IMG/VR virus record: IMGVR_UViG_3300048549_001527
Direction: 5' to 3' (one strand)
From: a virus
Taxonomy: Duplodnaviria; Caudoviricetes
Length of the DNA stretch: 64,000 nucleotides
Every line of letters starts with the position of its first letter. Positions within the stretch are counted from its first letter, which is position 1. Position numbers and translations under genes: made by a program. Below the pieces are notes generated by a model. That model worked only from the letters and a program-made list of their open reading frames with translations, made no database searches and was not told where the DNA came from. Of the stretch, positions 49,465-54,823 are shown one piece after another.

Positions 49465-50772
49465 ATGACTCAGTCAAACTATCAAGCGCTTGTAGAAAAG
49501 TGGGGCCCAGTTCTGGAGCACGACTCTTTTGCAAACATTAAAGATCAGCACCGTAAATCGGTCACTGCAACTGTTCTAGAGAATACTCAAAAAGCTCTAG
49601 TATCTGAAGGTGATCTGAGTGCAAACATGACTTCGCTTTTGTCTGAAGCAACTCATGTAAACGACGCAGGCACAGGTGGCTTCGGCGCAGACTCAACTGC
49701 TGCTGGTCCAACTGCAGGTTACGACCCAATCCTAATTTCATTGGTACGTCGTGCAATGCCAAACTTGATCGCATATGACATCGCTGGTGTTCAGCCGATG
49801 ACTGGCCCAACAGGCTTGATCTTCGCAATGCGTTCAACACATACTACGCAAGCTGCGGCTAACGAAGTATTTTATAACGAAGCTGATACAGACTTCTCAG
49901 GTACAGGTACTCATGCACAAGCATTGGGTTCAGCCAACTCAACAGTTACTACAACTGGTACGGGCCTTGCTACTGCAGATGCTGAATCAGACGCCAACTT
50001 CAACGAAATGGCATTCTCAATCGAGAAGGTTTCCGTAACAGCGAAATCACGCCAGTTGAAAGCGGAATACACAGCTGAGCTTGCTCAGGATCTTAAAGCC
50101 GTACACGGTTTGGATGCTGAAACAGAATTGGCTAACATTCTGCAATCAGAAATCTTGGTTGAAATCAACCGCGAATTGGTTCGTACTATTTACACAAACG
50201 CGGTACTCGGCGCAGCCGGTACAGCAACTCCAGGTACTTTTGATCTGGATGTTGATGCAAATGGTCGTTGGTCAGTTGAAAAATTCAAAGGCCTGATGTT
50301 CCAAATCGAGCAAGAAGCAAACGCAATTGCAAAAGGTACACGTCGTGGTAAAGGTAACATGGTTATCTGTTCTTCCGATGTTGCATCCGCATTGCAAATG
50401 GCAGGTGTTCTTGATTATACTCCAGCATTGAACAGCAATGCACTTGACGTAGATGACACAGGCAACACATTCGCCGGTGTTCTGAACGGTCGTTACAGAG
50501 TATACATCGATCCATATGCCGGAGCTAACTACATGGTTGTAGGTTATAAAGGTTCTTCATCTTTCGATGCAGGTATCTTCTATTGCCCATACGTACCGTT
50601 GCAGATGGTTCGCGCAGTTGGTGAAAACAGCTTCCAGCCAAAAATCGGATTTAAGACTCGCTACGGCATGGTCTCTAACCCGTTCTCAGCTGGCGCTTCA
50701 CAAGGCAACGGCGCATTGACTGTAGACTCAAACGTTTACTACCGTCGTGTAACTGTAAGCAACTTGTTTTAA
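49465..50772 (+). CDS. gp23: Major capsid protein gp23
   Basis: L.EKW.PVLEH; YDP.LISLVRRAMPNLIAYDI.GVQPMTGPTGLIFAMR; AKSR.LKAEY..ELAQDLKA.HGLDAE; YCPYVPL; FQPKIGFKTRYG; probable maturation site LLSE-AT. Confidence 0.98.
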   Translation: MTQSNYQALVEKWGPVLEHDSFANIKDQHRKSVTATVLENTQKALVSEGDLSANMTSLLSEATHVNDAGTGGFGADSTAAGPTAGYDPILISLVRRAMPNLIAYDIAGVQPMTGPTGLIFAMRSTHTTQAAANEVFYNEADTDFSGTGTHAQALGSANSTVTTTGTGLATADAESDANFNEMAFSIEKVSVTAKSRQLKAEYTAELAQDLKAVHGLDAETELANILQSEILVEINRELVRTIYTNAVLGAAGTATPGTFDLDVDANGRWSVEKFKGLMFQIEQEANAIAKGTRRGKGNMVICSSDVASALQMAGVLDYTPALNSNALDVDDTGNTFAGVLNGRYRVYIDPYAGANYMVVGYKGSSSFDAGIFYCPYVPLQMVRAVGENSFQPKIGFKTRYGMVSNPFSAGASQGNGALTVDSNVYYRRVTVSNLF

Positions 50773-50808: not shown

Positions 50809-50834
50809 GGGGAGCTTTTCAGCTCCCCTTTTTT
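50809..50834 (+). terminator. Intrinsic terminator after gp23
   Basis: GGGGAGCT-TTTC-AGCTCCCC followed by TTTTTT. Confidence 0.9.
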
Positions 50835-50852: not shown

Positions 50853-51197
50853 TTACATTCCTAGAGCATCCATATACATTTCAGTCATTGCGTTTTCATT
50901 ATCAATATCATCACGGTTACGTTTACGAATTGAGACAATTTTACGCATTACCTTTGGTTCATATCCGCTGCCTTTTGCTTCGGCATAAACTTCCTTGATA
51001 GAGTCCATGATATCTCTCTTTTCTTGTTCCAAACGCTCAATCCGCTCAATGAATGCGCGAAGTTCATCTGCTGTTACTGTTGCTGTATCTTGTGCCATTA
51101 AATAATCTCCTGCTGTTGTAAATTTCAAATCACCCATATTATTACGATTAACAGCATCATAATCAGGGTAGCCTTTTTCAAAGACTGGGCTTTCCAT
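50853..51197 (-). CDS. gapR: DUF2312/GapR-like nucleoid-associated DNA-binding protein (core 81 aa from the ATG at 51098; optional 33-aa N-terminal extension from 51197)
   Basis: ADELRAFIERIERLEQEK..I...IKEVYAEAKG.GY..KVMRKIV..RKR is the GapR signature; SD present at both in-frame ATGs. Confidence 0.9.
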   Translation of the reverse strand: MESPVFEKGYPDYDAVNRNNMGDLKFTTAGDYLMAQDTATVTADELRAFIERIERLEQEKRDIMDSIKEVYAEAKGSGYEPKVMRKIVSIRKRNRDDIDNENAMTEMYMDALGM

Positions 51198-51619
51198 TAA
51201 AGTTTTCCTTCTTCTCTCATTTGTTTACGGATTTTAGTTGCCGATATATCATGTATATCTTTACCAAGATCGTGCTCTGTAAAGGTATATCCAACACCAC
51301 GGCCATAACTAATATCAACAATATTAGGTACTTCTAAAATCATATATTCAAATCCATTGTGATATCCGTGTTCAGCTAAACCATTTTCGATATTCTCAAC
51401 AACTTGGATCATACCAAACGGATTATCATCTTGAGCTGCAGTACGCCCAGCGCCTGCATCTCCTTCAAAATTAAATACGTCACGTATCATAATAAGGACT
51501 TGACCTGTTTCCGCGAGTGCGCATTTAAACAGTTCAGTGTGACCGTCATGCCAAGGTTGCCATCGGCCTAACATTTGTGTGGTTGGTTTTTTATAGTCAA
51601 ATTGTGGTTTATCATACAT
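51197..51619 (-). CDS. Small HxGH-type nucleotidyltransferase (cytidylyl/NMN-adenylyltransferase-like)
   Basis: LGRWQPWHDGH; ISATKIR C-terminal motif. Confidence 0.8.
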   Translation of the reverse strand: MYDKPQFDYKKPTTQMLGRWQPWHDGHTELFKCALAETGQVLIMIRDVFNFEGDAGAGRTAAQDDNPFGMIQVVENIENGLAEHGYHNGFEYMILEVPNIVDISYGRGVGYTFTEHDLGKDIHDISATKIRKQMREEGKL

Positions 51620-52040
51620 TTCCGTGTAACCTTACGTGCCGCTCTACAGCATCAGCTAAAGTTTCATCAGTGTTATCAAACCATTTAGTCACATGATAAT
51701 CTGCTTGAGTTGGTTTTTGAAACATCTTGTTTGTATCTCCAAATCGCCCTTCTTTAATAGTATCCATCCATACTGTATAGTCAGCATCAAAGATTTCACG
51801 AGTTTCTTCAAGTGGACAGACAAAATCGCAAATAACAGTTCGTTTCATTTCTTTTTCGTAATCGGCAATTCCTTTCATACGATAAGCTTGACGTAAACGC
51901 GCTGCTTCGCTGAATTCCCAATCGTTTGCCATTTCGCGGATTTTATCGGCATTAAACCAAGCGCAATTCAAACGCTTTTGTAGTCTTTCTGCTAGCCAAG
52001 TTTTACCTGACCCAGGCAACCCAAAGATCAATATTTTCAT
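51612..52040 (-). CDS. Adenylylsulfate (APS) kinase-like P-loop kinase
   Basis: GLPGSGKT; NAD.IR.....FS...R; CDFVCP....R resembles the CysC ISFISP...R motif. Confidence 0.75.
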   Translation of the reverse strand: MKILIFGLPGSGKTWLAERLQKRLNCAWFNADKIREMANDWEFSEAARLRQAYRMKGIADYEKEMKRTVICDFVCPLEETREIFDADYTVWMDTIKEGRFGDTNKMFQKPTQADYHVTKWFDNTDETLADAVERHVRLHGNV

Positions 52041-52402
52041 TCATTGTCTCCTTCTGACATATCGATGTTAGATATAGTAATAAGCAGCGCAGTAAATACA
52101 ATAATTGAATAAAATGACATAAATCCAACCATAAAGAAATAGCCTGCTTTATAAAGATACGCAAGTGTAATTAAAGCTGAGCCTTGCACCAAAAGCTTTT
52201 CTCTCCATGTTGACTCTTCGTCAAACGCTAACTCAATGGTCCAATTGGGACTCAATATTAACGCTGAAATCTTTCCAAACTGATACATATTATAAAAAAT
52301 TAATACAGCTCCTGGAATTAAAAAGTATTCGTTGCCGTGCGTATAAAAATATCCAGCGCCACCTATGATGTGAGTTAATATAATTCCATAAAGATAAAGC
52401 AT
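52037..52402 (-). CDS. Hypothetical membrane protein (3-4 hydrophobic segments)
   Basis: Hydrophobic stretches; ATGA overlap with the kinase gene. Confidence 0.6.
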   Translation of the reverse strand: MLYLYGIILTHIIGGAGYFYTHGNEYFLIPGAVLIFYNMYQFGKISALILSPNWTIELAFDEESTWREKLLVQGSALITLAYLYKAGYFFMVGFMSFYSIIVFTALLITISNIDMSEGDNE

Positions 52403-52517: not shown

Positions 52518-53474
52518 TTACGAAGCATTAGCCATCTCCAACGCAAGATCTAACGCATCAACTTTGCGCTTTGCGTTTGTTCCGAACCAAGCAGATGCCA
52601 TACGTGTATCTGCAGAACGACCTAGTTCATGGTCAGCCATATAGGTAACTGCATTATACGCGTTCCACCAAGTGCCAGGGCGGAAGTTATCTCCTGGTTG
52701 GTTTTCAACAACTTCAACAGCACGTTCAGCTGTTCGCGACAAATCACGGTCTTCGCGAGTCGACTCTCCAAAGATCTTTGCCATAAACCGGTTAAGTACT
52801 TCTTTGTCATAGTTTTTAGAACCAAGAAACTCGGCGGCTTCTTTAAACTTTTCAACTTTGTTGTGAGATAAACCAAGAATTTCTTTAACACTTTCAGGAT
52901 CAAACACTGAACGGTGATTTACACGCACAGATGGTTGGTTCTTTTCGTTAAGAGCTACAGCCAATGTGTTATTGCATACAACACGTTCCATTACGAACTT
53001 GATGTCAATGCTTTTTCCGTAAACATGTGGATTAGAAAACAAAAGGTAGCCTTTAACGGCATCACCACCGAAAAGCTCAAAGCCATCACGGACATCGGCA
53101 AGAGCCCAAACCAAACGGCCATCTTTCAACGAACCGGCTGTATCCATAGCCATATCTCCGTTTGAAACAAAGTCGTTAAAAAACTCAAATGCTTCAGAGT
53201 TTTGTACTGGGTTCCAACCAGTTCCAACTTGTGTAAGGATTTTTCCATCTGATGAACGGACCAACGCTTGTTGACCAGTTTCTTTTTGCTCACCGTTGTA
53301 ATTGATGAATGTGTTGACTTTTTCAACTGACCAGTCAAGGCCTGCTGCTTCCATCATTTGCTGCGGCGACATATCGTCACCAACAGGAACACCTAGTCCA
53401 TGCCAAGGTAGACCTTGACTTTCACGGTACGCCATTTGAGCTTGACCGTTAATCATTTCCAATTCATGTGCCAT
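52518..53474 (-). CDS. DUF932/DUF945 phage-plasmid family protein (TIGR03299-like)
   Basis: MAY....PWHGLG; QN.EAFEFF; TAGSL..G..VW.LA; YLL..N.H; RVVC.NTL..AL; GTWW..YNAVT. Confidence 0.85.
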   Translation of the reverse strand: MAHELEMINGQAQMAYRESQGLPWHGLGVPVGDDMSPQQMMEAAGLDWSVEKVNTFINYNGEQKETGQQALVRSSDGKILTQVGTGWNPVQNSEAFEFFNDFVSNGDMAMDTAGSLKDGRLVWALADVRDGFELFGGDAVKGYLLFSNPHVYGKSIDIKFVMERVVCNNTLAVALNEKNQPSVRVNHRSVFDPESVKEILGLSHNKVEKFKEAAEFLGSKNYDKEVLNRFMAKIFGESTREDRDLSRTAERAVEVVENQPGDNFRPGTWWNAYNAVTYMADHELGRSADTRMASAWFGTNAKRKVDALDLALEMANAS

Positions 53475-53506: not shown

Positions 53507-53535
53507 AGTATATACTGATTCCATTATAATGTCAA
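53507..53535 (-). promoter_or_regulatory. Sigma70-type early promoter P1
   Basis: TTGACA-17-TATACT; GAATC in the spacer. Confidence 0.85.
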
Positions 53536-53924: not shown

Positions 53925-54257
53925 TTAGTGGATCGTTTCGTTATACATTGGCAAAGCGTCAACCATGTCATGAGTATATTGAGTAAACCCAGATTTAATC
54001 AAATCCACTACATCAACATATTGACCGTCAGAATGTATTTCCGCAACTTTACATAGAGGATAGTCCTCAATTAAAAAGGCTTGCATATATTTAAATGCTT
54101 CTCTTTTTGTATCAAAAGAATATGCCCTGCTGATACCGAACATATCATTTTTTGAAAATATTCTCATGATACTCAGTATACCATTTCCGCCAGGAGCGGG
54201 CATACGATGAGTACCAAGGAATACTCCCATTTCTTCGTCAATGATTACATATCTCAA
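53925..54257 (-). CDS. Hypothetical protein
   Basis: Open frame from 54287; likely TTG start at 54257 (AAGGA SD, TTGA overlap with the denV stop). Confidence 0.6.
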   Translation of the reverse strand: MRYVIIDEEMGVFLGTHRMPAPGGNGILSIMRIFSKNDMFGISRAYSFDTKREAFKYMQAFLIEDYPLCKVAEIHSDGQYVDVVDLIKSGFTQYTHDMVDALPMYNETIH

Positions 54258-54823
54258 GCTGGATATCCTTGAAAACCTTGCCACCAATAAGGAGCTTCAC
54301 GGCCTTTATTCCATACGGCAAAGTCTTTAGTCATATGATAGTATTTACGATATGCCGCGACTGGATCGCCTGCAACTTTACACAATGGAAAGTTATTCAT
54401 TGCTTGAGGAAATTCTGTCAAACCTACATCTGGTATATTTTCGGGTGGCTGAGCAAGTACTTCAGTCAACTTATTTGCAGTCATATGAAGCTTTTTGTAT
54501 CTTACTAGAAACTCATCTACAAGCCCGAGAAAGTGCTCATAATGCCATAGATAATTGGCCTTTGATTTCATAGACCAAATTGTGCATGGATGATGGTGGT
54601 GAACTGCTTTATATAAGGTATTTTCTAGGTTACTGTTAGGATGAACATAGTACTTAACCATAACCTTACCTGACTTTGAAGGACGTTTTTCCATGTAACC
54701 GTCAAGCATACGATGAGCCGTGGACAGCATTTGTCCAGACTCAATAATCATCTTACTGCAGTGTTTGTCGCAGACCATCTGAGCCGCTTCTCGCGGCTCT
54801 TCAGATAACACAAATATATTCAT
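54254..54823 (-). CDS. denV: Pyrimidine-dimer DNA glycosylase (DenV/endonuclease V family)
   Basis: MNIF.L...P..AA...CDKH..KM..E..QMLSTAH; H..HPC.IW; FPQAM; V.AYR.YY. Confidence 0.8.
   Translation of the reverse strand: MNIFVLSEEPREAAQMVCDKHCSKMIIESGQMLSTAHRMLDGYMEKRPSKSGKVMVKYYVHPNSNLENTLYKAVHHHHPCTIWSMKSKANYLWHYEHFLGLVDEFLVRYKKLHMTANKLTEVLAQPPENIPDVGLTEFPQAMNNFPLCKVAGDPVAAYRKYYHMTKDFAVWNKGREAPYWWQGFQGYPA

Follow-up and report, generated by a model that had tools for sequence, protein, structure and literature searches.

A two-gene candidate for a compact PAPS synthase in an uncultured marine T4-like phage

A 64,000-nt stretch of the virus record IMGVR_UViG_3300048549_001527, referred to here as the window, derives from a T4-like myophage of marine origin that is uncultured. 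On its minus strand, it carries two overlapping genes that encode a trimmed P-loop kinase of the adenosine 5'-phosphosulfate (APS) kinase family and a minimal adenylyltransferase of the HxGH (HIGH) superfamily. The pair probably constitutes a compact two-gene synthase of 3'-phosphoadenosine 5'-phosphosulfate (PAPS), and we place the probability of this reading at about 0.6. Its nearest known counterparts are PAPS synthase and the fusions of ATP sulfurylase (Sat) with APS kinase (CysC). A sequence-only reading of the window had offered two hypotheses for the pair, a miniature PAPS synthase and a NadR-like route that rebuilds nicotinamide adenine dinucleotide (NAD); the analysis supported the former and did not support the latter, and it is the gene context that decides between them. 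The features of the pair are as follows.

51612-52040, minus strand: trimmed APS-kinase-family P-loop kinase, 142 aa, with the Walker A motif GLPGSGKT
51197-51619, minus strand: minimal HxGH (HIGH-superfamily) adenylyltransferase, 140 aa; proposed compact ATP sulfurylase
51612-51619, minus strand: overlap of the two genes, 8 nt, coding-strand sequence ATGTATGA, which contains the start codon of the transferase and the stop codon of the kinase

The gene pair and its fused relatives

The pair is genuine and chance open reading frames (ORFs) are ruled out, because thousands of homologues were recovered at E<=0.001, more than 8000 of them of nearly the same length and more than 2000 of them longer (fused). 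The AlphaFold models of both proteins were confident, with pLDDT values of 95 for the kinase and 92 for the transferase. The coordinates, the motifs and the 8-nt overlap described in the sequence-only reading all agreed with the ORF listing and the sequence. The transferase start at 51619 is supported because the 15 N-terminal residues of the protein include a segment, 'FDxxKPT', that is conserved as the inter-domain linker in the family consensus of the fused relatives. Both proteins matched a single PHROG of 230 positions, the kinase at positions 2-118 and the transferase at positions 123-228. Most relatives encode one fused protein with the kinase in front. The window's pair represents the two halves of this protein as translationally coupled genes, and the 8-nt overlap is the junction of the split fusion; an overlap of identical length was found in the related locus L003.

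The fused metagenomic proteins (more than 2000) are ∼250-275 aa long, typically about 260 aa, and the kinase came first in all 136 of the 136 fused proteins examined. One metagenomic protein of 311 aa (P0369) carries the transferase motifs at its N-terminus and the Walker A motif at residue 145, so that its order may be reversed. Among isolates, the fused form was found in the Xylella phages Salvo, Sano and Bacata and their relatives and in the Stenotrophomonas phage DLP_6, where it is annotated merely as 'kinase', 'adenylylsulfate kinase' or 'hypothetical'. The unit is also cellular: dozens of SAR11 (Pelagibacteraceae) species carry it, as do SAR86 and other Alphaproteobacteria. The split arrangement recurs in lineage relatives of the window's phage (L003 and G001/L012) and in cellular loci, of which 43 carry the overlapping form seen in the window and 12 carry the fused form. 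The lineage relatives retain the unit, with transferase identities of 74-98%. Between the window and L003, the identity is 82% for the transferase and 52% for the kinase, a hint that the kinase has drifted faster or been replaced. When the complex of the kinase and the transferase was predicted, the score was 0.01 ('no answer'), which weighs neither way. A search of the open-access literature found no description of the kinase-transferase fusion in phages or SAR11.

The kinase carries an APS-kinase-like acceptor site

The kinase scored above the cut-off of the Pfam APS_kinase model (PF01583; 30.2 bits, cut-off 21.1) and far below that of the NCBIfam equivalog TIGR00455 (20.6 bits, cut-off 138.7). 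When the profile of the kinase family was compared with solved structures, APS kinases were the best informative matches (E 1e-13 to 1e-8). The AlphaFold model of the kinase was matched by Foldseek to 1m7g, a structure with bound ADP and APS, with a TM score of 0.83; the scores normalized by query length were 0.80-0.85 for 1m7g, 2ofw and 4bzp, and gluconate and shikimate kinases ranked lower.

The residues of the kinase were compared by alignment to a canonical cyanobacterial CysC, and D32, R35, F43, S44, R48, R54, F73, P76, R81 and F100 matched the canonical enzyme. In the CysC of Mycobacterium tuberculosis (Mtb), the side chains that contact APS are D480, R483, F492, R497 and F576 (PMC4373884), and these align with D32, R35, F43, R48 and F100 of the window's kinase. 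The P-loop GLPGSGKT, D32 and R35 correspond to the P-loop and to the second Asp and the Arg of the CysC motif LDGDxxR, of which the Asp lies near the 3'-OH and the Arg on the phosphosulfate (PMC4373884). Within the kinase family, R35 is invariant and D32 is conserved in at least 90%. The APS pocket is likewise kept, given that F43, R48 and F100 align with the Phe, the Arg and the F-T-G Phe of CysC, where two Phe residues sandwich the adenine and a second Arg lies on the sulfate (PMC4373884). By profile, by its modelled fold and by the aligned APS-contact residues, the protein is assigned to the APS-kinase family, and its predicted acceptor site is APS-kinase-like in a trimmed, atypical member.

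Two relatives of the kinase occur apart from the transferase. ORF238 of the Ralstonia phage phiRSL1 (L006) has no HxGH domain and its C-terminal half is unrelated; it adjoins glucosyltransferase-like and NDP-sugar pyrophosphorylase-like genes. RsoM2USA_248 (L007) is a stand-alone protein without an HxGH domain and with a more canonical 'KDLGFS' motif.

The transferase is a reduced HxGH adenylyltransferase

The transferase family retains the HxGH and S-x-T-x-x-R motifs for ATP binding; in the window they are GRWQPWHDGH (residues 18-27) and ISATKIR (residues 125-131). The conserved positions are G18, R19, Q21, P22, H24, G26 and H27, R46, N99, Y105, G106, R107, V109, G110 and Y111, and I125, S126, T128 and R131. 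The family profile matched NadM and archaeal nicotinamide mononucleotide (NMN) adenylyltransferases (NMNATs) among the solved structures at E 8e-11 to 1e-6, over the N-terminal half only. Phosphopantetheine adenylyltransferase (PPAT) and TagD were marginal (E 0.03 and 0.9, respectively), and no Sat chains were found in this search of the PDB at E<=1. The transferase remained below the cut-offs of the NMNAT models NF002243 (25.8 bits, cut-off 127) and TIGR01527 (20.8 bits, cut-off 181.2), and below that of the Pfam ATP-sulfurylase model PF01747 (14.2 bits, cut-off 24.3), which it matched in the HxxH region only. The statement of the sequence-only reading that the transferase lies nearer to NMNAT than to ATP sulfurylase was thus right by sequence, which does not settle the substrate.

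Structural alignment of the modelled transferase with VIA-align gave Z scores of 10.2 for NadM, 9.8 for PPAT and 9.2 for archaeal NMNAT, with CCT, Fom1 and TagD within 7-10. Superposition of the Thermus thermophilus ATP sulfurylase with APS (1v47) covered 119 residues at Z 8.2, and other Sats reached Z 5-6; Sat ranks under NadM and PPAT, and the core fold is superfamily-wide. The predicted fold of the transferase identifies its superfamily and not its substrate.

Relative to NMNAT, ∼25 residues are missing between strands 3 and 5, where residues 67-109 of 1f9a are spanned by profile positions 78-95; we take this segment of NMNAT to carry the nicotinamide-binding helix. After strand 2, 'VRD' (with R46) stands in place of the NMNAT 'IGS', and nothing in the aligned solved NMNATs corresponds to the conserved YGRxVGY loop (with R107). 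ATP sulfurylase binds sulfate through the RNP and GRD loops, which come after its two central strands (PMC3779200). Set beside the Sat motifs QxRNPxHxxH and GRDHAG, the transferase has R19-x-Q21-P22-x-H24-x-x-H27 together with the two Arg loops VRD and YGRxVGY. A local profile comparison with a genuine Sat gave three collinear but weak matches (best probability 44%), which are suggestive at most; a global hhalign comparison of the two gave a probability below 1% and was not meaningful.

The 125-140-aa HxGH domain may represent a third, hitherto undescribed class of ATP sulfurylase that arose from a NadM-like ancestor through loss of the nicotinamide-binding part and that, with the lid-less APS kinase, provides the sulfate activation of SAR11, SAR86 and many ocean phages; we see the chances of this broader proposal as evenly balanced.

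In several lineages the unit adjoins sulfotransferase or CysQ genes

The preference for a PAPS synthase came from the APS-kinase-like residues of the kinase and from the repeated occurrence of the unit beside genes for sulfotransferases and for CysQ, the phosphatase of 3'-phosphoadenosine 5'-phosphate (PAP). A sulfotransferase gene lies immediately upstream of the unit in a 511-kb bacterial contig (L008) and in a SAR86 locus (L078), and in L020 the unit shares an operon with GT2 and GT4 glycosyltransferase genes and a sulfotransferase gene. In two T4-like phages (L010 and L178), the unit and a sulfotransferase stand in one co-directional glycan block. Overall, sulfotransferase adjacency was observed in L008, L078, L020, L010, L178, L214, L236, L222, L211 and L233. 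In the closest cellular relatives of the window's pair (L022-L024), a CysQ equivalog is encoded directly upstream (288 bits, cut-off 229).

In L010 and L178, the fusion closes a tail-fibre-adjacent block with sulfotransferase, GT25, GT32 and methyltransferase genes, and an HldE-like PfkB/cytidylyltransferase gene and an epimerase gene face it; the block looks like a toolkit for the decoration of virion or host glycans.

Among 50 fusion-bearing viral records, 11 carried a Sulfotransfer_3 gene; all 14 hits (14/14) were on the same strand as the fusion, and the distance was <=700 bp in five records. One of these five is a complete 177-kb viral genome, in which the sole Sulfotransfer_3 hit was 689 bp from the fusion. 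The rough combined p value was 0.003, with records that are not all independent. When the search was started from sulfotransferases, the trimmed kinase was found on the same strand in 20 of the 80 viral loci; nine of these had the transferase and 11 did not, and the transferase alone was found in none (0). The kinase-only loci belong to glycan modules and have no conventional sulfurylase in their vicinity. In five such T4-like loci (L297, L296, L302, L291 and L317), the sulfotransferase gene is directly followed by the trimmed kinase alone, without a transferase, in glycan modules with GT2, GT4, carbamoyltransferase and 2-oxoglutarate (2OG) oxygenase genes, which suggests a reliance of these phages on host APS.

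The gene content of the carrier genomes was also analyzed. The unit was the sole APS_kinase match in 16 of the 20 carrier genomes, Sat was present in two of the 20 and sulfotransferases were present in 15 of the 20. No convincing CysD or CysH was found in the SAR11 carrier genomes. NadD was found in all five carrier genomes tested (above the curated cut-off in four of the five), CoaE was found in the same number (5/5), and CoaD was above its curated cut-off in four of the five.

Proposed pathway

In the proposed pathway, the HxGH transferase would move AMP from ATP onto sulfate to give APS and pyrophosphate, and the trimmed kinase would then phosphorylate the 3'-OH of APS to give PAPS, the latter step being well supported by homology. 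Consumption of APS by the kinase would pull the unfavourable first step forward, as in the fused PAPS synthases, and the fusion or translational coupling would keep both proteins in equal amounts. The kinase and transferase proteins may be physically coupled. The PAPS would be used by PAPS-dependent sulfotransferases to modify glycans, either on the virion or on the host surface, in the course of infection, these glycans being the presumed target of sulfation.

Several observations weigh against a PAPS synthase. In the kinase, N30 replaces the first Asp of LDGD, a ligand of the Mg-bound water (family consensus 'NAD'), and the corresponding residue of human PAPSS1, D87, is essential, given that D87A abolishes activity (PMC8528679). 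The lid of the kinase has a 19-residue deletion over 'KGLYAKAR' that removes an ATP-contacting Arg and a catalytic Lys. The sequence of the transferase lies nearer to NMNAT (E 8e-11) than to Sat, and its proposed role as a minimal ATP sulfurylase is drawn from the logic of the pathway. As for the context, the cases of sulfotransferase adjacency are partly related and not fully independent, no sulfotransferase of the viral ST1/3 type was found in the window, and the Salvo-type phages have the fusion with no detectable sulfotransferase or PAPS reductase. In the SAR11 loci, the unit lies among osmolyte and one-carbon (C1) genes and sulfotransferases are not adjacent. 

Among lineage relatives of the window's phage, a sulfotransferase search of the 49-kb fragment G001 gave no match, and the five lineage fragments searched gave one weak PF03567 match only.

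The SAR11 loci (L037-L064) have a conserved island in common. It encodes oxidases of the dimethylglycine/sarcosine type, a methyltransferase, an enoyl-CoA hydratase and a coenzyme A (CoA)-binding protein; no sulfur-related neighbour was found in it, and the SAR11 context is uninformative.

Alternative explanations

The kinase could phosphorylate APS, or the 3' position of an APS-like adenylate, with APS drawn from the host, while the transferase makes another activated compound. Candidates would be some other adenylylated anion and, by analogy with TagD or HldE, a sugar phosphate or polyol activated by a nucleotide for glycan decoration. The unit often lies in glycan clusters with epimerase, CMP-sugar synthetase-like, glycerophosphotransferase and glycosyltransferase genes, the 11 viral loci with a kinase and a sulfotransferase but no transferase indicate that the transferase is not always needed, and its fold is generic to the superfamily (Z 7-10 for PPAT, CCT, Fom1 and TagD). 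However, the similarity to the TagD profile is marginal, and SAR11, in whose genomes neither Sat nor a convincing CysD was found, would have no known source of APS. Moreover, the transferase never occurred without the kinase in the samples and is fused to it in thousands of proteins, which argues for consecutive steps on one metabolite. A different product of the transferase is considered unlikely, and a PAPS synthase is preferred.

The NadR-like hypothesis, in which the kinase converts nicotinamide riboside (NR) to NMN and the transferase converts NMN to NAD+ so as to counter NAD-depleting defences, draws on the NadM and archaeal NMNATs being the nearest solved relatives of the transferase in both sequence and fold, and on certain source annotations that call it an NMN adenylyltransferase. 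A two-step pathway from NR to NAD+ does exist in phages: NARP3 consists of a PnuC-like transporter and a NadR-like fusion of NMNAT with ribosylnicotinamide kinase (RNK) (PMC13464706). The window's kinase, however, is not of the NadR RNK type; its family matches APS kinases, with no NadR chain among the 60 matches listed, and its order relative to the transferase is the reverse of that in NadR. The transferase falls well short of the NMNAT cut-offs, lacks the ∼25-residue NMNAT segment described above and has VRD instead of IGS. No PnuC-like transporter accompanies the pair, the upstream membrane protein being lineage-specific and of no family, and the recurring neighbours are sulfotransferases and CysQ, with no NAD genes. 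We regard NAD+ rebuilding as very improbable. The same holds, to an even greater degree, for a CoA-synthase-like pair of a PPAT and a dephospho-CoA 3'-kinase, which would hardly be expected even though PPAT is among the best structural matches of the transferase (Z 9.8; also by Foldseek), dephospho-CoA kinase and APS kinase both phosphorylate the 3'-OH of an adenosine, and the SAR11 neighbours include the enoyl-CoA hydratase and the CoA-binding protein. That neighbourhood is a single conserved synteny, the PPAT profile similarity is marginal, and the kinase profile matches APS kinases, with no CoaE chain among the 60 matches listed. Because NadD, CoaD and CoaE are already encoded in carrier genomes, a housekeeping role in NAD or CoA synthesis is argued against in both cases.

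Comparison with known systems

Like human PAPS synthase (PAPSS1/2, 1x6v) and the Sat-APS kinase fusions of Aquifex (2gks) and Penicillium (1i2d), the unit combines an adenylyltransferase of the HxGH superfamily with an APS-kinase-type domain. The kinase is N-terminal in the fused relatives, as in the animal PAPS synthase, and the genomic ties to sulfotransferases and CysQ are a further likeness. The unit differs in that its transferase has ∼125-140 aa instead of ∼400 and no PUA-like domain I, lies under the Pfam ATP-sulfurylase cut-off and is closer in sequence to the NadM NMNATs. Its kinase has NAD for DGD and a lid shorter by 19 residues, and in the window the two halves are separate overlapping genes.

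With CysC (PF01583; Mtb 4bzq, Penicillium chrysogenum 1m7g), the kinase shares the fold, the P-loop, D-x-x-R, both adenine-stacking Phe residues and both phosphosulfate-binding Arg residues, whereas it has Asn for the first Asp of LDGD, has lost the Arg/Lys segment of the lid and is 142 aa long instead of ∼175-200. The transferase resembles NadM and archaeal NMNAT (1f9a, 1ej2, 2qjt) in GRxQPxHxGH, the NPF turn and S-x-T-x-x-R, and shows its best overall sequence and fold similarity to them; it differs in the ∼25 absent residues, in VRD for IGS, in the added YGRxVGY and in being always paired with an APS-type kinase. NARP3 is likewise a phage-encoded kinase and HxGH adenylyltransferase with two ATP-dependent steps, whereas the unit has another kinase family, the reversed domain order, no PnuC and other recurrent neighbours.

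Significance of a compact sulfate-activating unit

The synthesis of PAPS is textbook biochemistry; the new element would be the enzyme class for the first step and the setting in phages and SAR11. If the transferase is an ATP sulfurylase, it would represent a new and very compact enzyme class for a textbook reaction, and a PAPS synthase of ∼260 aa would be of use in enzymatic sulfation. To our knowledge, the most abundant marine bacteria are regarded as having no known sulfate-activating genes. The unit would fill this gap where SAR11, SAR86 and many phages encode sulfotransferases without known sulfate-activating enzymes, so that these bacteria would still make PAPS. Ocean phages would bring their own supply of PAPS, a self-contained route to the sulfation of glycans during infection, and sulfated glycans on virions or infected cells would be implied; we know of no experimental demonstration of these for phages so far. 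Caution is also advised in annotation, given that the genes are now labelled 'kinase', 'adenylylsulfate kinase', 'NMN adenylyltransferase' or 'hypothetical'.

Neighbouring genes in the window

The closest isolates to the window's T4-like myophage, which has a Gp23-type capsid, are the Sinorhizobium phages phiM12 and phiN3, the OM43 phage Melnitz and the pelagiphage HTVC008M. The features that surround the pair are listed below.

49465-50772: Gp23-type capsid gene, convergent with the minus-strand run of the kinase and transferase genes
50809-50828, no strand assigned: bidirectional terminator-like hairpin between the GapR-like gene and gp23 (consensus scan)
50853-51197, minus strand: GapR-like DNA-binding protein (PF10073, E 3e-31)
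52037-52402, minus strand: 121-aa predicted membrane protein; its stop codon and the start codon of the kinase overlap (ATGA)
52518-53474, minus strand: DUF932 protein (phrog_1221), first gene of the putative operon
53507-53535, minus strand: strong sigma-70-like promoter, 11/12 matches (consensus scan; predicted function)
54254-54823, minus strand: 189-aa protein upstream of the DUF932 gene, matching phrog_624 ('DNA binding protein'), with a faint resemblance to Pyr_excise

Because a predicted promoter lies upstream and a hairpin at the end, the minus-strand run of DUF932, membrane protein, kinase, transferase and GapR-like genes is suggested to form a single operon. The pair is presumably expressed early. 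The start of the GapR-like gene shares 1 nt with the transferase stop, so that a homologue of a nucleoid-associated protein is translationally coupled to the pair.

The 121-aa membrane protein is a lineage-specific neighbour and lies outside the kinase-transferase unit. No Pfam or PHROG family was found for it, and two homologues were found in the databases. It is homologous to a 122-aa protein at the equivalent position of L003, with which it shares an 'LSPNW..EL' block, whereas Salvo, DLP_6 and RsoM2USA have unrelated soluble proteins at this position. As a candidate PnuC-like importer it was rejected, having no family and only the two homologues, with all Atlas leads below 0.9, and being absent from other lineages. 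Its ATGA coupling to the kinase is seen in this phage lineage only.

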